This document shows, one piece after another, positions 4,553 to 16,115 of a stretch of 20,000 bases of DNA. The stretch lies in the sequence record SRR31156797_5453, one strand, 5' to 3'. Position 1 is the first letter of the stretch. Each line of letters begins with the position of its first letter. Position numbers and translations under genes: made by a program. Under the pieces are notes generated by a model. The model saw only the letters and a program-made list of their open reading frames with translations, searched no databases and was not told the DNA's origin.

Positions 4553-4553
4553 G

Positions 4554-4582
4554 TTGACGTTTTTTTATCAATAGGCTAAACT
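4554..4582 (+). promoter_or_regulatory. Sigma-A promoter of the Trp-leader/ABC transporter operon
   Basis: TTGACG (4554-4559)-N17-TAAACT (4577-4582). Confidence 0.8.
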
Positions 4583-4626
4583 GAATTCAATCAAGAAAGA
4601 AAACAAGTTGAGAAGGAGGAACAATC

Positions 4627-4680
4627 ATGAAACTATTTATTCCATTGCAAGTGAAATCATGGCAAAACTGGCGTAGATAG
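4627..4680 (+). CDS. Putative Trp-sensing leader peptide MKLFIPLQVKSWQNWRR (17 aa)
   Basis: Strong RBS AAGGAGGA (4613-4620) 6 nt before the ATG. TGG codons at 4660-4662 and 4669-4671. Lies between the promoter and attenuator hairpins upstream of a TrpX-family transporter. Too short for the ORF track. Confidence 0.85.
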   Translation: MKLFIPLQVKSWQNWRR

Positions 4681-4766
4681 TTGTATTGATGGGACCTCAT
4701 TCCATAGATACAACTTTTTAGAGAACCTTCTAAAGTGCTGTATCTATGCTGGTAGTTGAATTTATC

Positions 4767-4797
4767 GCCGCATAGGACAACCTTCTATGCGGCTTTT
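4767..4797 (+). terminator. Leader terminator T1 (conditional)
   Basis: Perfect 9-bp stem GCCGCATAG (4767-4775)/CTATGCGGC (4785-4793) followed by TTTTGCTT (short U-tract). Confidence 0.65.
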
Positions 4798-4805
4798 GCT
4801 TACTT

Positions 4806-4838
4806 GCAATTGCCGTCACATAGGCAGTTGCTTTTTTT
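4806..4838 (+). terminator. Leader terminator T2 (conditional)
   Basis: Stem GCAATTGCC (4806-4814)/GGCAGTTGC (4823-4831) with one G-U pair, followed by T7. Confidence 0.8.
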
Positions 4839-4899
4839 GTTCTCAAAAACCGTAAAAACGAAAACATGAAAAACTTAAGCAGAAAAAGGAGAATGAAAA

Positions 4900-5952
4900 A
4901 TGAAAAACAAGGGATTAATTGCATCGGTTGCCGTTATTTTATTATTTTTAGGAGCGACCTTTGTCTATCAGTTAGGAATGAGAAGTGGGACCAATCAAGC
5001 CAGTGAGACTTCGGAACCAGTAGAAAAAGCTGAAAAAACAGTTGGGATCCTGCAGTTTGTCAGTCATGAAGCGTTAGATGCGATCACCGAGGGGATCAAA
5101 GAAGGCCTTAAAGAATCAGGCTATACCGAAGGGGACAACTTGACGATCGAATTCCAAAACGGCCAAGCGGATCAAAGTAAATTGGCAACGATGAGTCAGC
5201 AGCTGCTAAATAAAGATGCCGACGTTTTGGTTGGGGTAGCAACACCCGCAGCACAAGCGTTGGCGAATGTCACTCAGGATGTACCAATCGTTTTAGGAGC
5301 GGTCACTGATCCAGTTGGGGCAAATCTCGTGGCAGATATGGATCAACCCGGCGGAAATATCACTGGTGTTTCAGATAAAGCACCCGTCGCTGCGCAAATC
5401 AAACTAGCAAAAGATTTGCTACCGGAGGCAAAAACAGTCGGCATTTTGTATTCTTCGACCGAAGACAATTCGAAATACCAAGTGGCAGAAGCAGAAGCTG
5501 CTGCCGAAGAAAATGGCTTGACCAGCAAATCGTATGCCGTTCCTTCAAGTAACGAAATTGCTCAAATGGTGCAAGTGATGGCACGAGAAGTCGACTTTAT
5601 CTATATTCCGTTAGATAATACGATTGCAAACGCAATGCAGACGGTAGTACAAGAAGCCAATAAATCAAAAACGCCCATCATCACGTCTGTTGATACGATG
5701 GTGGAACAAGGCGGCTTAGCAACGGTTGGGCAAGATCAATTTACGATTGGGGTCGAAACCGGGAAGATGGTGGCAGCAATTCTTGACGGGACGGCCGAAC
5801 CTGCGACAACGCCGATCTATACATTCAGCGATGGCGAAACGATCATTAATGAAACACAAGCGCAGTTATTGGGAATCACTATCCCAGAAAACCTCAAAGA
5901 CGAGGCAAAATTGATTACAACGACACCGGAAAGTGAAGCAAGTGATGAGTAA
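4900..5952 (+). CDS. trpX: Tryptophan/aromatic amino acid ABC transporter substrate-binding protein (TrpX family)
   Basis: Motifs VGILQFVSHEALD, NGQADQSKL, VATPAAQAL, GAVTDPVGA, GGNITGVSD, EDNS, PLDNTIANA. N-terminal hydrophobic anchor without a lipobox Cys. RBS AAAGGAG. The Trp-rich leader supports the specificity. Confidence 0.85.
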   Translation: MKNKGLIASVAVILLFLGATFVYQLGMRSGTNQASETSEPVEKAEKTVGILQFVSHEALDAITEGIKEGLKESGYTEGDNLTIEFQNGQADQSKLATMSQQLLNKDADVLVGVATPAAQALANVTQDVPIVLGAVTDPVGANLVADMDQPGGNITGVSDKAPVAAQIKLAKDLLPEAKTVGILYSSTEDNSKYQVAEAEAAAEENGLTSKSYAVPSSNEIAQMVQVMAREVDFIYIPLDNTIANAMQTVVQEANKSKTPIITSVDTMVEQGGLATVGQDQFTIGVETGKMVAAILDGTAEPATTPIYTFSDGETIINETQAQLLGITIPENLKDEAKLITTTPESEASDE

Positions 5953-6027
5953 CAATTAGGAACAGCAATCACCTGCGATCACCGAGAGAGTCTTGAAAGA
6001 GAAAACTTGTAAGAATATGGAGGAAGA

Positions 6028-6915
6028 ATGATGATTGTTTCAGCAATAGGGCAAGGGCTACTTTGGGGAATCCTGGGATTAGGGATTTTTATGACCTATC
6101 GTATTTTGAATTTCCCGGATATGACGACGGAAGGGTCCTTTCCGTTAGGCGGTGCTGTCTGTGTGACAGCGATCACCCATGGGGTGTCGCCCGTCTTAGC
6201 GACTTTGTTAGGAGTATTGGCTGGGATGTGTGCGGGCTGTGTGACAGGACTTCTTTATACAAAAGGCAAAATTCCCGTGATTTTAGCAGGTATTTTGGTG
6301 ATGTCTTCATTGAACTCGGTCATGCTGTTTGTGATGCGCTCACCAAACCTCTCTTTATTAAACCAACCGAAAATTCAAGATTTTTTTACTAGAATGAATT
6401 TACCGAATTATTATGATACGGTGATTATCGGATTGATCATGGTCTTGTTGATTGGGGGCGTCTTGGTTTACTTTTTCCATACCAACTTGGGTCAAGCTTA
6501 TATTGCTACCGGGGATAATGAACACATGGCCAAGTCAATGGGAATCAATACGGATCGAATGAAAATCATTGGACTGATCGTCTCCAATGGCGTGATCGCA
6601 CTCTCAGGCGCATTGATCGCTCAAAACGACGGCTACGCCGACATAAGCAAGGGAATCGGTGTGATCGTTATCGGACTGGCGTCAATCATCATTGGTGAGG
6701 TATTATATGGTGAATTGACCTTGCTGGAACGTCTGATCGCTATCGTGATCGGCAGCATTATCTACCAATTATTGATACTATTTGTGATCAAAGCTGGATT
6801 TGATACGACTTACTTGAAGATCTTCTCTGCAATCGTCTTGACGATCTGCCTGTTGATCCCTCAATTTAAACAAGCCTTGCATCTACGCACTGGTTTTGAA
6901 ACGGAGGATGAATAA
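6028..6915 (+). CDS. ABC transporter permease (partner of TrpX)
   Basis: Multi-pass hydrophobic protein with RILNFPDMTTEGSFPLGGAV, ATGDNEHMA and GVIVIGLASIIIGE. RBS GGAGG. Confidence 0.92.
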   Translation: MMIVSAIGQGLLWGILGLGIFMTYRILNFPDMTTEGSFPLGGAVCVTAITHGVSPVLATLLGVLAGMCAGCVTGLLYTKGKIPVILAGILVMSSLNSVMLFVMRSPNLSLLNQPKIQDFFTRMNLPNYYDTVIIGLIMVLLIGGVLVYFFHTNLGQAYIATGDNEHMAKSMGINTDRMKIIGLIVSNGVIALSGALIAQNDGYADISKGIGVIVIGLASIIIGEVLYGELTLLERLIAIVIGSIIYQLLILFVIKAGFDTTYLKIFSAIVLTICLLIPQFKQALHLRTGFETEDE

Positions 6916-7673
6916 TGTTAGCCTTAAAAAAAGCCTTTAAAGTTGTCGGCAACGGACCGAATGAGAAAAAAGTGCTCTTGAATAAAATCGATCTTTCTTT
7001 AAAACCAGGAGAATTTGTCACGGTCGTCGGAGGAAATGGCGCCGGCAAAAGTACGCTATTCAACTGCATCTCAGGCACCATGCCCTTGACGAGTGGGCAA
7101 GTGATGATCGATGATCAAAACGTGACCGCACTTTCGGAAGAAAAACGTGCCCGCTTTTTGGCACGTGTCTTCCAAGACCCGAAAATGGGCACTGCTCCCC
7201 GTATGACAGTGGCAGAAAATCTGCTGTTAGCACAAAAAAGAGGGCAAAAACGGTCACTTGGTCTTCGACAACTCCAAGGACAAAGGGAAATGTTCTTTGC
7301 GCTTTGTAAAGAAATCGGCAATGGGTTGGAAAATCATTTGGATACGCCAACGGGCAGTTTATCTGGTGGTCAACGACAGGCACTAAGTTTATTGATGGCA
7401 ACGATTCAAACACCAAAACTGTTGTTGCTAGATGAACATACGGCTGCGTTAGACCCAAAGACCTCCAAACAGCTGATGCAAATCACTGCAAGACGCGTGG
7501 AAGAACAAAACCTAACTTGTCTCATGATCACCCATCGGATGGAAGATGCATTAAAATACGGAGACCGCCTGATCCTGCTCAGAAAAGGGGAAATCGTCAA
7601 GGATCTTTCAGCAGATGAAAAAGCTCGCTTAAGTTTACCAGAACTGTTACTGTTCTTTGAAGACGACTTATAA
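6915..7673 (+). CDS. ABC transporter ATP-binding protein
   Basis: Walker A GGNGAGKST, signature LSGGQRQ, Walker B LLLLDEH, H-loop ITH. TAATG coupling to the permease. Confidence 0.95.
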   Translation: MLALKKAFKVVGNGPNEKKVLLNKIDLSLKPGEFVTVVGGNGAGKSTLFNCISGTMPLTSGQVMIDDQNVTALSEEKRARFLARVFQDPKMGTAPRMTVAENLLLAQKRGQKRSLGLRQLQGQREMFFALCKEIGNGLENHLDTPTGSLSGGQRQALSLLMATIQTPKLLLLDEHTAALDPKTSKQLMQITARRVEEQNLTCLMITHRMEDALKYGDRLILLRKGEIVKDLSADEKARLSLPELLLFFEDDL

Positions 7674-7738
7674 GCCCTTGATAGAACAGTGTTTTCAAAA
7701 AAAATAATCAAATAAATGAAAAAAATAAGAAAAAATCA

Positions 7739-7767
7739 TTGACATCTTTCAAAGTTAAACCTATACT
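7739..7767 (+). promoter_or_regulatory. Sigma-A promoter of the aro operon, with upstream A-rich (UP-like) tract
   Basis: TTGACA (7739-7744)-N17-TATACT (7762-7767). Confidence 0.9.
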
Positions 7768-7802
7768 TAGGTCAATCTTACATCAGTTTGGAGCGAAGGA
7801 CT

Positions 7803-7868
7803 ATGCAAAAATTATTGCTAACGAACCCCACACAACTGAATAAATATTACTTTAGCTATTTTAGATAG
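7803..7868 (+). CDS. Putative Tyr/Phe-sensing leader peptide MQKLLLTNPTQLNKYYFSYFR (21 aa)
   Basis: Purine-rich GGAGCGAAGGA before ATG 7803. Codons TAT TAC TTT AGC TAT TTT AGA TAG give 3 Tyr and 2 Phe in the last 7 sense codons. Lies upstream of the operon that makes Tyr and Phe. Confidence 0.88.
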   Translation: MQKLLLTNPTQLNKYYFSYFR

Positions 7869-7945
7869 GTTTGTATTCATGAAGGCATGGGTACAAACGC
7901 TAAGTTTGTATCTATGATGGCTAGAGCATTTCGTAATGAATTCGC

Positions 7946-7983
7946 AGCCACGTAGATCGTAAAATCTATAGTGGCTATTTTTT
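7946..7983 (+). terminator. Leader terminator T1 (conditional)
   Basis: AGCCACGTAGAT/ATCTAT(A)GTGGCT stem with loop CGTAAA, followed by ATTTTTT. Confidence 0.75.
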
Positions 7984-8020
7984 ATATTCACATATCGGCG
8001 CTGTCGCTATGTAATGTTTG

Positions 8021-8067
8021 AAGGTGTTCACTGTAGATTCTTAAATTTACGGTGGACATCTTTTTTT
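8021..8067 (+). terminator. Leader terminator T2 (conditional)
   Basis: 19-bp stem with 4 G-U pairs, AAGGTGTTCACTGTAGATT/AATTTACGGTGGACATCTT, loop CTTA, T7 at 8061-8067, just before the aroE RBS. Confidence 0.85.
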
Positions 8068-8086
8068 GTTGAAAGGAATGAACCAG

Positions 8087-8956
8087 ATGAAACAAATGAT
8101 AACCGGTCACACACGGTTGGCGGCACTATTTGCCAAACCAGCCAAACACAGCATCTCTCCAGCGATGCACAATCTTTCTTTTGAAGAACAAGGGATCGAC
8201 GCCGTGTATCTGGCCTTTGATGTTGAGCCGGATGATTTAGCCGCTAGTATCCAAAGCATCCGTCAGTTGGATCTCTTAGGTGTCAATCTATCAATGCCCC
8301 ATAAAATGGCAGCAGTACCGTTGATGGATGAATGCTCACCAGCAGCCGAGCTGATCGGCGCAATCAATACAATCGTCAATCAAGAGGGGCGATTGATTGG
8401 GCACAATACAGATGGTATCGGCTTTATGCGCGCACTTGAAGACATTCAAGTGTCGATCATTGGAAAAACGATGACTGTGATCGGTGCAGGTGGAGCAGCG
8501 ACAGCAATCATTAGTCAAGCTGCACTAGATGGTGTCAAAACAATCCGTGTCTTTAACCGCAAGGATGAGTTTTATCCAATCATCCAGGAAAAATTGACAC
8601 AGATCGCAGAAAAGACCGCCTCTGAAATCACATTAACGGATTTAGAAGATCAGACGGCTCTAAAAACAGCCATCGATCAAAGCAGTCTTTTAGTTAATGC
8701 TACTGGCGTGGGGATGAAGTCGAATGATACGGTAAGTCCTCTAAAAGACAAAACACTCTTGCGGGAATCATTAGCTGTCTATGATGTCATCTATAATCCA
8801 AGAGAAACGCAGCTTTTGAAAGATGCGAAAGAAGTCGGTGCCAAAACTGCAAACGGCTTAAGCATGTTGCTGTATCAAGGTGCAGCTGCATTTAAACTTT
8901 GGACAGGCCAAGAAATGCCTGTTGAAAAAGTAAAAGCACTTATTGAGTCCATGTAA
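8087..8956 (+). CDS. aroE: Shikimate dehydrogenase
   Basis: HSISPAMHN, NLSMPHK, GAINTI, GHNTDGIGF, IGAGGAA, NATGVGM, DVIYNPRET, GLSMLLYQGA. Start moved from 8066 to ATG 8087 because RBS AAAGGA is at 8072-8077. Confidence 0.93.
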   Translation: MKQMITGHTRLAALFAKPAKHSISPAMHNLSFEEQGIDAVYLAFDVEPDDLAASIQSIRQLDLLGVNLSMPHKMAAVPLMDECSPAAELIGAINTIVNQEGRLIGHNTDGIGFMRALEDIQVSIIGKTMTVIGAGGAATAIISQAALDGVKTIRVFNRKDEFYPIIQEKLTQIAEKTASEITLTDLEDQTALKTAIDQSSLLVNATGVGMKSNDTVSPLKDKTLLRESLAVYDVIYNPRETQLLKDAKEVGAKTANGLSMLLYQGAAAFKLWTGQEMPVEKVKALIESM

Positions 8957-8996
8957 AAAATAAAAAAATTAGAAAAAACGAAAGTAGGAAGAAAAA

Positions 8997-10022
8997 ATGA
9001 TCGTAATTATGAAACCAGGCGCTACGCCAGAACAAGTTGAAGTTGTTGTAACTAGAATCAAAAAAGAAGGCTTAGATGTTCAAGTCAACCAAGGAAAAGA
9101 ACAGGTCGTTATCGGGTTAAAAGGGGATACACGCCGCATCCAAGATGTTGCTTTTCGCAGCTACGAAGGTGTCGAAGATGCCATTCGGATCTCAAATACT
9201 TACAAATTGACCTCTCGTGAGTTCCATCCGCAAGATACGGTTGTGGATGTAGATGGTGTGAAAATCGGTGACGGCAACTTTGTTACGATGGCTGGTCCAT
9301 GTTCGATTGAAGGCTTAGACCAAATTCGTGAATGTGCCCGAATCGCCAAAGCTGGTGGTGCACAAATCTTACGTGGTGGTGCCTTCAAACCCCGCACGTC
9401 GCCTTACGCATTCCAAGGGCTTGAAGAAGAAGGGCTAAAATACATTCGCCAAGCTGCTGATGAAACTGGCATGAAAATCATCACAGAAGTCATGGACGAA
9501 GGACATATCGATATGGTGGCGGAATACAGTGATATTTTGCAGATTGGTGCTCGGAACATGCAAAACTTCAAATTGCTAGCTGCCGTTGGAAAAACTGGGA
9601 AACCAATTGGCCTTAAACGAGGCATCTCAGGCACGATCGACGAATGGTTGAATGCAGCGGAATACATCGCTGTTCAAGATAAAAGTGAAGTGATTTTCAT
9701 TGAACGTGGGATCCGAACTTACGAAACAGCAACCCGTAATACCTTTGATCTAAGTGCAGTACCAATCATCAAAAAACTGAGCCACTTCCCAATCATCGTC
9801 GATCCTAGTCATGGAACAGGTATCTGGGATCTCGTACCACCAATGGCAAGAGCGGGTGTTGCTGCCGGCGCCGATGGGATGATCGTAGAGATCCATCCAG
9901 ATCCAGCCAATGCTTGGTCTGATGGTCCTCAATCACTTAACGAAAAAACGTACATGAACATGATGAAAGAAGTCCATATCATGGAAAAAGCGATGAAAGA
10001 AATCAAAGCGTTGCAAGACTAA
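8997..10022 (+). CDS. aroF: DAHP synthase (class I-beta, with N-terminal ACT/ferredoxin-like regulatory domain)
   Basis: MIVIMKP N-terminal regulatory domain, [57 protein letters not shown]. Confidence 0.95.
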
Positions 10023-10058
10023 GCGTGAAGACAACCAATAAAAGAGGTGCAAAAATCA

Positions 10059-11114
10059 ATGTTACACATTCACTTAGAAGACCATTCCTATGATATCCTC
10101 ATTAAACGAGGGGCGTTTCAAAAAGTCGGAACCTGGGTGCAACAGTTGTGGGACAAACAGCGCATTGCCGTCATTACAGACAGCAATGTCGCACCCCTGT
10201 ATGGCGGACAAATCGTCGATTCCATAACCGCTGCCGGGTTTGAAGCGACACTGTTAATCGTACCAGCCGGCGAAAAAAGCAAATCACTAGAGCAAGCAGC
10301 TAGTTTATATGATGGTCTTGCCCAATTCGGAATGACCAGAAGCGATGGGATCATTGCCCTTGGTGGCGGTGTGATCGGTGATCTCGGAGGATTTGTTGCT
10401 TCTACTTATATGCGCGGCATTGATTTCTTGCAGATTCCGACGACGTTATTGGCACAGGTCGATTCAAGTATCGGCGGAAAAACAGCTGTAAATACTGGCA
10501 GTGCCAAGAATCTCGTTGGCACGTTTGCCCAACCAGCCGGTGTGATGATCGATCCAGATTTACTTGAAAGTTTGCCGCTTAAACGCGTCCAAGAAGGCAT
10601 TGCTGAAATCATCAAGTCAGCCGCTATTGCAGATCCTGAACTTTGGCAAACGTTAGCAGGTTTGAATGATGAAGCCGATTTGTTGGCCCACGCTGAAAAT
10701 GTGATCACAGCTTCTTTAAAGGTTAAACAAAAAGTAGTGGAAGAAGACCCCTTTGATCATGGTAGTCGTCTGACACTGAACTTCGGTCATACGATCGGTC
10801 ATGGCTTAGAAAGAACGGCTGCTTTTGAGACAAGTCACGGAGAAGGCGTTGCGATGGGGATGATTATGATCACCCGACATGCAGAAGTCACCGGATTAAC
10901 ACCAAAAGGTACGACCCAGCAACTTACAGAAATGGTTGAGAAGTTTCACTTGCCGATTACACCAAGGGAAATAGATAAAGAGCAATTATACCAAGCAATC
11001 ACTCATGATAAAAAAGCCCGCGGGCAACAATTGAAGATTATTCTATTAGAAGCGATCGGTCAGGCGAAAATCGTGACGATCCCGACTGAAAAAATCAAAG
11101 ACTACCTAGTATAA
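10059..11114 (+). CDS. aroB: 3-dehydroquinate synthase
   Basis: GEKSKS, ALGGGVIGDLGGF, PTTLLAQVDSSIGGKTAVN, KNLVG, LNFGHTIGH, HGEGVA. Start placed at ATG 10059 (RBS GAGGTG 10044-10049). Confidence 0.96.
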   Translation: MLHIHLEDHSYDILIKRGAFQKVGTWVQQLWDKQRIAVITDSNVAPLYGGQIVDSITAAGFEATLLIVPAGEKSKSLEQAASLYDGLAQFGMTRSDGIIALGGGVIGDLGGFVASTYMRGIDFLQIPTTLLAQVDSSIGGKTAVNTGSAKNLVGTFAQPAGVMIDPDLLESLPLKRVQEGIAEIIKSAAIADPELWQTLAGLNDEADLLAHAENVITASLKVKQKVVEEDPFDHGSRLTLNFGHTIGHGLERTAAFETSHGEGVAMGMIMITRHAEVTGLTPKGTTQQLTEMVEKFHLPITPREIDKEQLYQAITHDKKARGQQLKIILLEAIGQAKIVTIPTEKIKDYLV

Positions 11115-11133
11115 GAAAGGAAGGTAACGGATC

Positions 11134-12300
11134 ATGCGTTATATTACAGCAGGCGAATCACATGGACCAGAGTTGACCGCCATTATCGAAGGGTTACCGG
11201 CAGGATTGCCATTAACAGCGGAAGACATCAATTTTGAATTAGCGAGACGACAAACCGGCTATGGTCGTGGGGGACGGATGTTGATTGAAAAAGACCAAGT
11301 CCGTATCACTTCCGGTATCCGTCATGGAAAAACATTAGGCTCTCCTGTGACTTTAGTGGTCGAGAACAAAGATTGGAAAAATTGGACCAAGGTCATGGCA
11401 ATCGAAGAGGTACCAGAAAAAGACCGCAAACTACGACGAGTGGCACGACCAAGACCTGGTCATGCTGACTTGGTCGGCGGCATGAAATACCACCATCAAG
11501 ATCTACGAAACGTCCTGGAACGTTCATCTGCCCGGGAAACGACTATGCGGGTAGCCATCGGCGCAATCGCGAAGAAAATTTTGAAGGAGCTTGGCATCGA
11601 TGTGGCAGGTCATGTAACGATGTTAGGCGGCATCAAAGCAGAAATTCCAGAAGGCTTGACTGTCAAAGAAATCGCACAACGCTCTGAAGCCTCGGAAGTA
11701 AGAGTCTTAGATCCATCTGTCGAGGAAGAAATTAAACAGTTGATCGATCAAACGAAGAAAAATGGTGATACGATCGGCGGCGTAGTGGAAGTGCTTGTTG
11801 GCGGCGTTCCTGCTGGTCTTGGCAGTTACGTGCAATGGGACAAAAAACTTGATGCGAAGATTGCCCAAGCCGTGGTCAGTATCAACGCCTTTAAAGGTGC
11901 TGAGTTCGGTGTTGGCTTTGAGGCAGGTGTTTTACCGGGTTCTAAAGTCATGGATGAGATTTTATGGGACGAACAACGGGGCTACACCCGTCGCAGCAAC
12001 AACCTAGGCGGGTTTGAAGGTGGCATGACGAACGGTGAACCAATCGTGGTTCGTGGTGTTATGAAGCCGATCCCAACCTTGTACAAGCCATTGCAAAGTG
12101 TGGATATCGACAGCAAAGAACCGTATAAAGCAAGCGTCGAACGCTCAGATAGCACCGCTGTACCAGCAGCCAGTGTTGTTTGTGAGAGTGTGGTGGCGAC
12201 AGTGGTGGCCAATGAACTATTAGAAAAGTTCCCAAGTGATTCATTCGCAGAATTGACTGCATCTGTTCAAGCGTATCGAGAATACTTGTTAACCTACTGA
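11134..12300 (+). CDS. aroC: Chorismate synthase
   Basis: [47 protein letters not shown]. Confidence 0.97.
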
Positions 12301-12344
12301 TTAAAGAACCAGCAAAAATTCCAGTAGAAATGAGGATTCTTTTC

Positions 12345-13430
12345 ATGAACCAAAATATCTTTGTCGCCGGTCTAGGGTTGATCGGCGCTTCCTTAGCAAA
12401 ATGTATCAAAACGTCACATCCCCAAACCTATCTAATGGGGTGGGATCACTGTCGCAAAACCAATGAGATCGCATTAGCAACAAGATTAGTAGATAAAGTG
12501 CCCCCTTCATTTTCTGAAGGTGCTGTCCGTGCCGACGTGATTCTGTTGGCATTGCCGGTAGAAATCACCAAAAAATATCTTGCCGAACTGGGGGCACTTT
12601 CATTAAAGCCTTCGGTCCTGGTAACAGACACCGGCAGTACCAAAGCAGAAATCACGCAATTCGCCGAGTCCTTTTCCTTTGATTTTATTGGGGGCCATCC
12701 GATGGCTGGCTCTCATAAATCAGGGATCACAGCAGCCGATGAGAACCTTTTCGAGAATGCTTACTATATCTTTACACCGACGAAAAGTCAGCGGATGGAA
12801 GAGCTGCAAGAGCTTTTTCGCGGCACTAGAGCCAAATATGTGGCGCTTGCGCCAAAAGAGCATGATCAAATCACAGGGATGTTGAGCCATTTGCCCCATA
12901 TTATTGCTTCGGGATTAGTCAATCAGGCAGATGCCTTCAACCACGAACACCCTAGAGCGCAGCAACTTGCAGCAGGCGGTTTTCGCGATATCACTCGCAT
13001 TGCTTCTTCAGATCCTCGTATGTGGACCGATATCTTATTGAGTAATCGACAGGAGCTGCTGCAGCTGATCGATGAGTGGCAAAAACAAATGACGACCATG
13101 GCTCACTGGTTGCAGAAAAAAGACGAAAGGGCGATCTTTCGGTTTTTTGAATCCGCGAAGGAAACACGGGATCAATTGCCGGTTCATCAAAATGGGGCGA
13201 TCCCAGCATTCTATGATCTATTCATCGATGTACCGGATCATCCCGGCGTTGTCGCTGAAGTGACGGGGCTATTGAGCGAACATCAGCTCTCTTTGATCAA
13301 CTTGAAAATTCTTGAAACTCGAGAAGATATTATTGGTGTTTTACAGATTTCATTCAAAACGCAAAATGATTTGCTGCAAGCAGAGCAGCTGATTCAAAAA
13401 AAGACGACCTATTCATGTCGAAAAAAATAG
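12345..13430 (+). CDS. tyrA: Prephenate dehydrogenase with C-terminal ACT domain
   Basis: GLGLIGAS, TDTGSTK, GGHPMAGS, HD....SHLPH, AGGFRDITRIA, ACT motif VPDHPGVVAEV. Start placed at ATG 12345 (RBS GAGG 12332-12335). Confidence 0.95.
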   Translation: MNQNIFVAGLGLIGASLAKCIKTSHPQTYLMGWDHCRKTNEIALATRLVDKVPPSFSEGAVRADVILLALPVEITKKYLAELGALSLKPSVLVTDTGSTKAEITQFAESFSFDFIGGHPMAGSHKSGITAADENLFENAYYIFTPTKSQRMEELQELFRGTRAKYVALAPKEHDQITGMLSHLPHIIASGLVNQADAFNHEHPRAQQLAAGGFRDITRIASSDPRMWTDILLSNRQELLQLIDEWQKQMTTMAHWLQKKDERAIFRFFESAKETRDQLPVHQNGAIPAFYDLFIDVPDHPGVVAEVTGLLSEHQLSLINLKILETREDIIGVLQISFKTQNDLLQAEQLIQKKTTYSCRKK

Positions 13431-15232
<1,802 letters not shown>

Positions 15233-15233
15233 A

Positions 15234-16115
15234 ATGAAGATTGGTTATTTAGGACCGAAAAGTTCCTTTACGCATTTAGCTGCGCAAGAAGCTTATCCGG
15301 AAAATACCTGTATCCCCTATGGATCGATTCCGCTTTGTATTCAAGCGCTAGCTAACGGCGTGATCGATCGCGCGGTCGTTCCGAACGAGAACTCATTAGA
15401 AGGATCTGTTCATGCCACGATTGATACGCTCTTTCGTCAAAATCAGTTGAGCATCGAACAGGAAGTTATTTTACCGATCAATCATCAATTGTTAGTTTCT
15501 CAGCAATCAGCAAAAGACAACCGTCCCATCACTAAGATAATTTCTCATCCGCAAGCCTTAGCGCAATGTGCCGACTTCATCGAAGCCCGATTTGCTGGAG
15601 CTACTGTTGAGGCGGTTGCTTCCACAACGACTGCAGCAGCCTACGTAGCAAAACATCCAGAAGAAGCAGTTGCGGCGATTGCTTCCAAAGAAGCGGCATT
15701 GGCCTATCAATTAACGATCAAAAAAACCAATATTCAAGATGTTGCCTTTAATCAAACCCGTTTTTGGGTTTTGACGAAGAAAGCAGCAAACACCCAATTA
15801 CCAGAGCAGACTGCTGAGAAAGCAACGATTTTTGTGACGCTCCCGGCAAATCGACCGGGGATCTTGCACAAAATCTTAGCAACCTTTGGCTGGCGAGAAA
15901 TTGATTTAAGCAAAATTGAATCGCGGCCTTCAAAAACCACCTTAGGGGAATACTTTTTCGTGATCGATCTGGTGATGGACAAGCCGTGGCAACTGATTGT
16001 AAATGCCTTTGAAGAGATTCAGTTGTTGGGTGGTCAAGTCCATCTTCTCGGCGTGTATTCCGTAAATGTTGTTGAGGAAGTGACAAAAAATGACTCAAGT
16101 CAAAATAAAATTTAG
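15234..16115 (+). CDS. pheA: Prephenate dehydratase (monofunctional, C-terminal ACT domain)
   Basis: YLGP..SFT, VP.ENSLEGSV, SHPQALAQC, NQTRF, LSKIESRP. Start placed at ATG 15234, just after the aroK stop. Confidence 0.95.
   Translation: MKIGYLGPKSSFTHLAAQEAYPENTCIPYGSIPLCIQALANGVIDRAVVPNENSLEGSVHATIDTLFRQNQLSIEQEVILPINHQLLVSQQSAKDNRPITKIISHPQALAQCADFIEARFAGATVEAVASTTTAAAYVAKHPEEAVAAIASKEAALAYQLTIKKTNIQDVAFNQTRFWVLTKKAANTQLPEQTAEKATIFVTLPANRPGILHKILATFGWREIDLSKIESRPSKTTLGEYFFVIDLVMDKPWQLIVNAFEEIQLLGGQVHLLGVYSVNVVEEVTKNDSSQNKI

Follow-up and report, generated by a model that had tools for sequence, protein, structure and literature searches.

The window analysed here, a stretch of 20,000 nucleotides (nt) from sequence record SRR31156797_5453 taken at its full length, carries a leader region of approximately 400 nt between an ABC-transporter ATPase gene, which ends at position 7673, and aroE. 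The leader precedes an operon whose gene order, according to Pfam matches, is aroE, DAHP synthase, aroB, aroC, tyrA, aroA, an open reading frame (ORF) of 168 amino acids that is probably aroK and lies outside the Pfam scan, and pheA; three positions, 8078, 8087 or 8096, are candidates for the start of aroE. Among the scanned operon proteins, tyrA and pheA are represented and trp genes are not, which matches the Tyr and Phe codons of a short ORF in the leader. The promoter upstream of the leader would place the transcript start near 7774-7776, and an equivalent TTGACA...TATACT pair is also present upstream of the leader in the printed homologous loci. Contigs assembled from four public RNA runs (X1, X2, X3, and X6) either continue through the leader as far as aroE or are interrupted at 7695/7704 and 7787/7790; they are silent on transcript starts, levels, and ends, including any 3′ ends near 7983 or 8067. 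We estimate at roughly 70% the probability that the leader is a ribosome-mediated Tyr/Phe leader-peptide transcription attenuator of the aroE-aroF-aroB-aroC-tyrA-aroA-pheA operon, built as a relay of eight segments. The coordinates of all features are collected in Table 1, and helices are named below by the numbers of their paired segments.

Table 1. Features of the Tyr/Phe-type leader, its surroundings, and the paralogous Trp-type leader
Feature	Position	Strand	Remarks
Sigma-70-type promoter TTGACA-17-TATACT	7739..7767	+	Near-consensus, 11/12 matches
5′ helix enclosing leader Shine-Dalgarno (SD) sequence and start codon	7783-7791:7828-7839	+	Minimum free energy (MFE) structures
Leader SD sequence GGAG	7790-7793	+	9 nt before ATG
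Leader ORF, 21 codons, MQKLLLTNPTQLNKYYFSYFR and stop	7803..7868	+	Stop TAG 7866-7868; absent from the preliminary description
Putative regulatory codons Tyr-Tyr-Phe-Ser-Tyr-Phe	7845..7862	+	Leader ORF translation
Segment 0, leader ORF 3′ end	7850..7865	+	Pairs segment 3b, 7911-7926
Segment 1, directly after stop codon	7869..7881	+	Pairs segment 2
Segment 2	7886..7898	+	Pairs segment 1 or segment 3a (7904-7916)
Segment 3, hub	7904..7926	+	Three alternative partners: 0, 2, 4
Segment 4	7946..7957	+	Pairs segment 3 (putative T1 antiterminator) or segment 5
Segment 5 and T1 U tract	7963..7982	+	Pairs segment 4 or segment 6 (7963-7974:8028-8039, 7976-7982:8020-8026)
Predicted terminator T1, hairpin 4:5	7946..7983	+	7946-7976, −13.3 kcal/mol, then A and U6 (7978-7983)
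Spacer hairpin closing the 5:6 loop	7984..8017	+	−7.9 kcal/mol; sequence and length poorly conserved
Predicted terminator T2, hairpin 6:7	8020..8067	+	8020-8039:8044-8063, −23.6 kcal/mol, U7 (8061-8067)
Words of the preliminary description: TGTATTCATG; CATGGGTACA; TGTATCTATG; CCACGTAGAT	7872; 7886; 7907; 7948	+	Exact-word check
Words of the preliminary description, continued: ATCTATAGTGG; TCACTGTAGAT; ATTTACGGTGG	7964; 8028; 8045	+	Exact-word check
Putatively regulated operon	8087..16115	+	Pfam matches and ORF list
168-amino-acid ORF between aroA and pheA	14726-15232	+	ORF list
Second leader (paralogue)	4628-4850, with upstream part from 4553	+	Before ABC transporter 4900-7673
Trp leader ORF, MKLFIPLQVKSWQNWRR and stop, ending in SWQNWRR	4628-4681	+	ORF and SD/ATG check

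The region 7852-8042 matches the Rfam family RF02863, 'Enterococcus sRNA 2410' (sRNA_2410), with 85.8 bits against a gathering cut-off of 61 (E 2e-14, model positions 1-196), and this is the sole gathering-level Rfam match in the window. A preliminary description made from the sequence had outlined an element of seven pairing segments at 7869-8067; the element is real, and it belongs to a catalogued family that is widespread in relatives rather than unique to the window. The RF02863 model finds matches with E <= 0.001 in 78 of 101 related genomes (above the cut-off in 63 of the 101) and in none of 14 control genomes, and many related genomes contain two copies. The model covers neither the 5′ portion of the leader ORF nor the final terminator's 3′ half, and its consensus resembles the copy with one terminator that precedes transporter genes. 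Other Rfam families matched at 7400-8400 were sub-threshold and at chance level and were set aside; the trpB motif (26.4 bits) alone stands out, which is ascribed to paralogy. Of the eight Rfam matches listed for 7400-8400 with E values up to 10, none belongs to a T-box family.

For comparison, 122 of the listed RF02863 matches were taken, leaving out two at contig ends (G034:C87 and G060:C6). An 18-nt anchor could be placed in 122 of 123 records (L120 was unplaced), and after two misplaced records (L057 and L074) were dropped, 120 loci including the window remained. The first downstream gene, assigned by BLAST against the window proteins, is aroE-like in 59 loci, encodes a lipoprotein ABC substrate-binding protein in 55, and is another gene, such as DAHP synthase or a permease, in six; in the 120 loci this ORF lies on the same strand and starts 86-333 nt downstream. 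Removal of identical sequences and of L114, which contains Ns, gave two alignments, A1 with 59 aro-type leaders and A2 with 56 transporter-type leaders. In A1 the window takes the place of L023, to which it is identical, and L046 and L087 were given manual extensions.

The name under which the family is catalogued raises the possibility, very unlikely in our judgment, that the RNA of approximately 200-300 nt is chiefly a trans-acting small RNA (sRNA), as it is filed in Rfam and by Sinel 2017, with its place before the aro operon being secondary. A 195-nt RNA of this family has been seen in E. faecium by RNA-seq and Northern blot, with two transcripts (Sinel 2017, PMC5593968), and trans action of terminated attenuator RNAs has been reported in other bacteria (PMC6614838). 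However, attenuation should by itself yield a terminated leader as a by-product, the RNA has no known target, and 114 of the 120 loci have the aroE-like or binding-protein ORF downstream on the same strand, while the other six also have an ORF there. The two-transcript Northern signal was considered as support for two terminators and set aside, as the family consensus is close to the one-terminator copy and the probe could cross-hybridise with the aro copy.

The evidence for an attenuator begins with the leader ORF, which would be the sensor. An ATG ORF of 17-27 codons with an SD sequence is present in 119 of the 120 loci, and the N-termini of these ORFs vary in sequence and length while the frame is kept. 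The C-terminal motif FSYFR is retained in 115 loci. Among the six residues that precede the final Arg, 106 of 119 peptides have five aromatic ones and the remaining 13 have four. At the aromatic positions Tyr and Phe interchange, with mostly YYFSYF in aro-type and FYFSYF in transporter-type leaders, and Trp is present in just two of the 119 peptides. All three stop codons are in use across the 120 loci (TAG 98, TAA 14, and TGA 8), and in 115 loci segment 1 follows the stop codon immediately; in the other five the stop codon falls within segment 1, three codons downstream. In the transporter-type loci L104, L109, L112, L117, and L118 the ORF is three codons longer and ends in FRNCL, FRSCL, LRCCL, or FRVCL; a ribosome at the stop codon of these five would melt 1:2 more fully. 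The exception among the 120 loci, L103, has no recognisable ATG leader ORF and an altered anchor (ending in TTATTTAAGCTATTTTAGATAA), lies upstream of a DAHP-synthase-like gene, and is possibly a decaying copy. At the other end of the ORF, UCAGUUUGG, which lies just before and extends into the leader SD sequence, pairs with the Gln-Leu-Asn codons to form the 5′ helix, whose 3′ strand encodes QLN or KLN in 107 of the 119 peptides. This helix might leave ribosomes only a brief interval during transcription in which to load.

The same peptide could in principle be read as an arrest peptide that senses free Tyr or Phe within the ribosome, in the manner of TnaC: with the amino acid bound, slow release at the stop codon would keep the ribosome on segment 1 and lock 2:3, T1, and T2. 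The conservation of the C-terminal FSYFR before the stop codon and of QLN is in keeping with such a peptide, as is the position of the stop codon next to or inside segment 1. On the other hand, the conserved codons form the 5′ strand of 0:3, so that constraint on the RNA suffices to explain their conservation, and the use of three stop codons implies both release factors. Codon sensing is also the simpler fit for the paralogous leader with Trp codons described below. The arrest peptide appears unlikely. We continue with the attenuator in which the ribosome counts codons.

The folding of the leader provides the second line of evidence. The 311 nt from 7775 fold with −92.5 kcal/mol, compared with −64.8 ± 4.0 kcal/mol for dinucleotide shuffles (z −6.98), and none of the 100 shuffles folds as well. 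The MFE structure has an outer helix, 7850-7865:7911-7926, around a 13-bp hairpin, 7869-7881:7886-7898, which are followed by a 12-bp hairpin at 7946-7976 with A-U6, a small hairpin at 7984-8017, and a 20-bp hairpin at 8020-8063 leading into U7. Segment 0, formed by the end of the leader ORF, had gone unreported in the preliminary description, and its pairing with segment 3 is the MFE state. At suitable transcript lengths, ViennaRNA also yields 1:2 (13 bp), 2:3 (13 bp), 3:4 (12 bp with one bulge), 4:5 (12 bp), 5:6 (12 and 7 bp), and 6:7 (20 bp). The two registers proposed earlier, 1:2 with 3:4 and 5:6 against 2:3 with 4:5 and 6:7, are both possible, and their helices are conserved in 115 non-identical homologues. 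Each of the seven words on which that proposal was built is present in a single copy, with coordinates off by no more than 1-2 nt, and the arms of its small hairpin are found (ACATA at 7990 and TATGT at 8008). The odd-numbered segments, which had been taken for variants of one word, actually use two: segments 1 and 3a have GTTTGTAT.(C/T)ATG in common, with identity at 11 of 13 positions, AT(C/T)TA..GTGG recurs in segments 3b, 5, and 7, and segment 3 is a composite of both. The need of a segment to pair with two neighbours would in any case make alternate segments look alike, and the suggested origin of the repeated words by internal duplication is inseparable from convergence. The spacer hairpin is very variable in length and sequence in aro-type leaders (A1 columns 165-200) and is missing in some; its role, if any, looks like one of geometry, in closing the 5:6 loop, rather than of sequence.

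Conservation of the alternative helices was counted with the structures of the window (A1) or of L033 (A2), on alignments that had not been fitted to the alternative helices. All helices, 0:3, 1:2, 2:3, 3:4, 4:5, 5:6, and 6:7, are paired in 83-99% of cells, compared with 22-50% for slid partners. The set of helices that would correspond to the OFF state without a ribosome (0:3, 1:2, 4:5, and 6:7) is paired in 93.2% of cells in A1 and 92.5% in A2, and 0:3 in 99.5% in A1 and 96.8% / 98.5% in A2. For the competing helices the corresponding values are 98.3% (A1) and 91.5% (A2) for 2:3, 96.2% and 88.2% for 3:4, and 83.1% and 93.0% for 5:6. RNAalifold applied to the 59 aro-type leaders independently yields 0:3, 1:2, 4:5, and 6:7. 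Changes on both sides of a pair are most frequent in 6:7 (18 of 20 pairs in A1 and 11 of 13 in A2), and they are also found in 1:2 (6/13 and 9/13), 5:6 (9/19 and 6/9), 2:3 (3/13 and 5/14), 4:5 (2/12 and 5/11), and 3:4 (1/12 and 2/11). The near-invariance of segments 0 and 3 is to be expected if segment 3 has to pair with segments 0, 2, and 4 and segment 0 serves as coding sequence besides.

This near-invariance bears on the idea of direct sensing of an aromatic amino acid or precursor by a riboswitch or protein-binding RNA, with the small ORF being incidental. Segments 0, 1, and 3 are nearly unchanged across several bacterial families, beyond what is usual for simple hairpins, and a riboswitch has already been proposed in print. 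A 270-nt 5′ untranslated region before the transporter gene gbs2033 of S. agalactiae was described as conserved in Lactobacillales and as standing before ABC transporters and also before E. faecium aroFBC-tyrA, and a new riboswitch for an aromatic amino acid or precursor was proposed (Rosinski-Chupin 2015, PMC4448216); from its description, the 'gbs2033' element is probably RF02863. The paralogous trpB motif, with more than 900 representatives, has likewise been presented as a strong riboswitch candidate (Narunsky 2024, PMC11109978), although its authors could not themselves rule out a classic attenuator. Against direct sensing stand the ATG ORF with an SD sequence in 119 of the 120 loci, its variable but in-frame N-termini, the turnover of stop codons, the interchange of Tyr and Phe, and the fact that exactly these codons become Trp in the paralogue. 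The invariant bases are explained by two or three partners each, plus coding in segment 0, and the consensus fold given by RNAalifold is a row of hairpins with no multi-helix junction and no conserved unpaired core. An aptamer free of a conserved upstream ORF would be expected of a riboswitch, and what is found is a conserved ORF that overlaps the most conserved bases. We consider direct sensing quite unlikely, and turn again to ribosome-mediated attenuation.

In an attenuator of this kind, the position of the ribosome should decide which partner segment 3 takes, and in the computations the footprint position does choose it. Snapshots were folded with the transcript 3′ end at 7960, where segment 4 is just out, and with a mask from −15 to +12 around the A-site codon. 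In the window, 0:3 and 1:2 form with segment 4 free when no ribosome is present. Whichever of the five aromatic codons the ribosome occupies, 1:2 and 3:4 form, and with a ribosome at the stop codon 2:3 forms. The homologues behave similarly: segment 3 pairs with segment 0 in 44 of 59 aro-type and 49 of 56 transporter-type leaders with no ribosome, with segment 4 in 57 and 52 of them, respectively, when the ribosome stands on the first Phe, which is invariant, and with segment 2 in 57 and 46 with a ribosome at the stop codon. At the last Phe, 3:4 is chosen in only 43 of 59 aro-type and 27 of 56 transporter-type leaders. Once segment 6 is out, a mask at a hungry codon gives 5:6 in 43 of 59 aro-type and 34 of 56 transporter-type leaders. 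The earlier suggestion of a register flip triggered by the ribosome is thus supported by the snapshots, in the window and in homologues; equilibrium folding, in which T1 and T2 appear under every mask, does not discriminate between the registers. The sensor would be the leader ORF, which adds segment 0 to the chain.

From these folds the following mechanism can be proposed. The ORF would be translated, and its last codons, Tyr-Tyr-Phe-Ser-Tyr-Phe-Arg-stop, would double as segment 0 of a relay whose inner segments can each pair with the segment on either side. Without a ribosome, 0:3 and 1:2 would leave segment 4 free for 4:5 (T1), polymerases that escape would meet 6:7 (T2), and the operon would be OFF; 0:3, 1:2, 4:5, and 6:7 would in this way make up a third register for untranslated RNA. 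With ample Tyr and Phe, the ribosome would reach the stop codon next to segment 1 and melt 1:2, whereupon segment 2 would capture segment 3, and 4:5 and 6:7 would again form, giving the OFF state. When charged tRNA-Tyr or tRNA-Phe is scarce, a ribosome that stalls on the aromatic codons would cover segment 0 and spare 1:2, such that the freed segment 3 could pair with the emerging segment 4. Segment 5, being left partnerless, would then pair with segment 6, helped by the spacer hairpin, and neither terminator would form, which is the ON state.

Several observations weigh against this proposal. At equilibrium, T1 and T2 form in the full-length RNA whatever is masked, and therefore the switch, if real, would have to be kinetic, as in classical systems. 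Without a ribosome, 5:6 still forms once segment 6 is out in 24 of 59 aro-type and 16 of 56 transporter-type leaders, and in the window it belongs to the MFE structure under every mask, including none; therefore, the gating of T2 would rest on the persistence of T1 once formed. A stall at the last Phe gives 2:3 and not 3:4 in 16 of 59 aro-type and 28 of 56 transporter-type leaders. Helix 0:3 is frozen, with changes on both sides in 0 of 15 pairs in A1 and 2 of 15 in A2, and complementarity alone points to this putative pairing. For 2:3, 3:4, and 5:6 the both-sided changes in cells exceed those of all 500 shuffles, save for 2:3 in A2, which 1 of 500 equals, but the homologues are kin, so that the shuffle controls overstate significance and the counts are not probabilities. 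The conservation of the peptide, in both QLN (107/119) and FSYFR (115/120), exceeds the need of codon counting, and the U tract after 4:5, discussed below, is missing in 17 of 59 aro-type leaders.

The kinetics are bounded by findpath barriers, which are heuristic upper bounds. Passage from 1:2 with 3:4 to 1:2 with T1 is near-isoenergetic (−29.7 to −30.4 kcal/mol) with a barrier of at most 12.0 kcal/mol by this heuristic, compared with 3.8 kcal/mol if segment 4 is free, and passage from 5:6 to T2 has a barrier of 10.7 kcal/mol, compared with 4.4 kcal/mol if segment 6 is free. For segment 6 to invade T1 once this has formed, the barrier is 13.2 kcal/mol, and for the return from 1:2 with 3:4 to 0:3 with 1:2 it is 17.1 kcal/mol. 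Such barriers make each state a plausible kinetic trap, in which the first-formed helix may persist for the approximately 1 s that the polymerase needs; the proposed relay depends on pre-formed helices holding that long.

The third line of evidence concerns the terminators. Hairpins 4:5 and 6:7 are each followed by a U run, in agreement with the tandem predicted intrinsic terminators that had been proposed before the first gene; T2 is found by a terminator-scanning tool as well as by our own scan, and T1 by our own. If six or more T among the 9 nt that follow segment 5 are counted as a U tract, hairpin 4:5 has one behind it in 42 of 59 aro-type leaders, compared with just 4 of 56 transporter-type leaders, and our own terminator scan agrees. 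The relay therefore appears, from the aligned sequences, to be a trait of the family, and the first terminator does not. In transporter-type leaders the single predicted terminator, 6:7, lies approximately 110 nt downstream of the stop codon, and 4:5 can presumably act only as an anti-antiterminator. With one terminator at this distance, the relay would be the only route by which the ribosome could control 6:7, and this anatomy is the strongest argument for a functional chain. In the aro-type leaders 4:5 would have become a first, weaker terminator, as predicted from the hairpin energies in the window (−13.3 against −23.6 kcal/mol). Polymerases that escape with T1 formed would leave segment 6 free for T2; the leak would then require failure at both terminators, with the two failure rates multiplied. 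Tandem terminators may, as suggested earlier, multiply the dynamic range. Altogether, the in silico analysis finds a short ORF with an SD sequence, a cluster of Tyr and Phe codons, a predicted intrinsic terminator between the ORF and the first gene, an exclusive and conserved putative antiterminator, and folds selected by the ribosome footprint, as would be expected of an attenuator in which ribosomes stall and T1 and T2 terminate transcription.

A paralogous leader upstream in the window speaks further for codon sensing. It precedes the ABC transporter, in which PF04392, BPD_transp_2, and ABC_tran are matched in Pfam, and follows a promoter-like TTGACG...TAAACT. Its hairpins use words related to those of the Tyr/Phe leader, and two of them are followed by U runs; the MFE structure holds 2:3, not 0:3. 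The leader matches the Rfam trpB motif, RF04312, with 50.8 bits, below the cut-off of 59 (E 2.8e-6), and the RF04312 model is matched in 82 of the 101 relatives, in 27 of them above the cut-off. In the window and 30 listed loci, an ORF with SD and ATG ends 6-26 nt before the trpB motif in 31 of 31, and W-x-x-W stands near the ORF end in 29 of the 31, with a single W in the other two. In both leaders an ORF is followed by a hairpin, a hub, and hairpins with U tracts; the two lie 3 kb apart and differ in their codons, in the 2:3 helix of the MFE structure, and in the gene that follows. The same scaffold with Trp in place of Tyr and Phe codons is hard to reconcile with anything but codon sensing. 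In many relatives, matches to the trpB motif and to RF02863 lie approximately 3 kb apart on the same strand and contig. The order of Trp-type leader, ABC transporter, Tyr/Phe-type leader, and aro operon (4553-16115 in the window) recurs, for example, in G001:C99, G003:C5, and G008:C8.

The classic E. coli trp attenuator has four segments, and the preliminary description set its seven segments against this number. The comparison holds for trp and overlooks the his leader of Salmonella and E. coli, which has six segments, A-F, pairing as A:B, C:D, and E:F or as B:C and D:E. The his leader is like the present one in having more than four segments and in passing a register shift started by the ribosome to a distant terminator, and unlike it in that the chain is one step shorter, with a single terminator and no third partner for a hub. 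As in the E. coli trpL-trpEDCBA and pheL-pheA systems, a short ORF with codons for the end product would let the ribosome choose between antiterminator and terminator, and untranslated RNA would terminate. Unlike trpL and pheL, the present leader has eight segments instead of four and two serial predicted terminators behind one sensor, and a ribosome at its stop codon would free a decoy, segment 2, without covering the antiterminator strand; the host, moreover, is a Firmicute, and no Rfam leader family match at 7400-8400 and no evident sequence similarity links it to them.

E. coli trpL and pheL and C. glutamicum aroR are established leader-peptide attenuators (PMC11802643). The aroR peptide (Phe-Tyr-Phe) lies upstream of aroF (Neshat 2014, via PMC11802643) and resembles the present peptide in its Phe and Tyr codons, its place before a shikimate-pathway operon, and its Gram-positive host; it is actinobacterial, unrelated in sequence, and, as described there, apparently a simple attenuator that responds to Phe only. 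Two candidate upstream ORFs rich in F/Y codons were recognised computationally before shikimate genes, as here (Stav 2019, PMC6429828); the available passages mention no relay or tandem terminator, and Enterococcus and Lactobacillales have 0 occurrences in the main text. Sinel 2017 and Rosinski-Chupin 2015 filed what is probably the same RNA as an sRNA gene and a putative riboswitch, respectively; the former has 0 occurrences of the word 'leader' and the latter 0 of 'leader peptide'. Our literature search found no published description of the YYFSYFR or WQNWRR peptides or of the relay; Naville & Gautheret 2010 and a paper on editing in S. pyogenes proved irrelevant to it, and supplementary alignments, which lay outside that search, may bear on priority.

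Beyond the attenuator itself, we lean, somewhat tentatively, toward a wider claim. According to this, two serial terminators are set from one translated Tyr/Phe sensor through six levels of mutually exclusive helices (first 0:3 or 2:3, followed by 3:4, 4:5, 5:6, and 6:7), two widespread RNAs of Firmicutes, sRNA_2410/gbs2033 and the trpB motif, are paralogous leader-peptide attenuators, and specificity has been switched by exchange of Tyr and Phe codons for Trp codons. If this is true, two catalogued families would leave the classes of 'sRNA' and 'riboswitch candidate' for ribosome-mediated attenuation, which would spare hunts for ligands, and annotation would be corrected in 78 (RF02863) and 82 (trpB motif) of the 101 relatives searched. 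Classical leader-peptide attenuation would then be common in a group in which T-boxes are usually assumed. The anatomy would be instructive in its three-partner hub and in a decoy hairpin that reports a ribosome at the stop codon. The putative anti-antiterminator, which carries a U tract in the aro and not in the transporter context, would offer a natural comparison of one and two terminators on the same relay. The presence of a Tyr/Phe-type and a Trp-type paralogue within the same window would amount to a codon swap made by nature. The constraint of several partners would explain the near-frozen sequence across families, and it cautions against reading conservation as evidence for an aptamer. 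The main value of the finding would lie in the re-reading of two catalogued orphan RNAs as paralogous leader-peptide attenuators.

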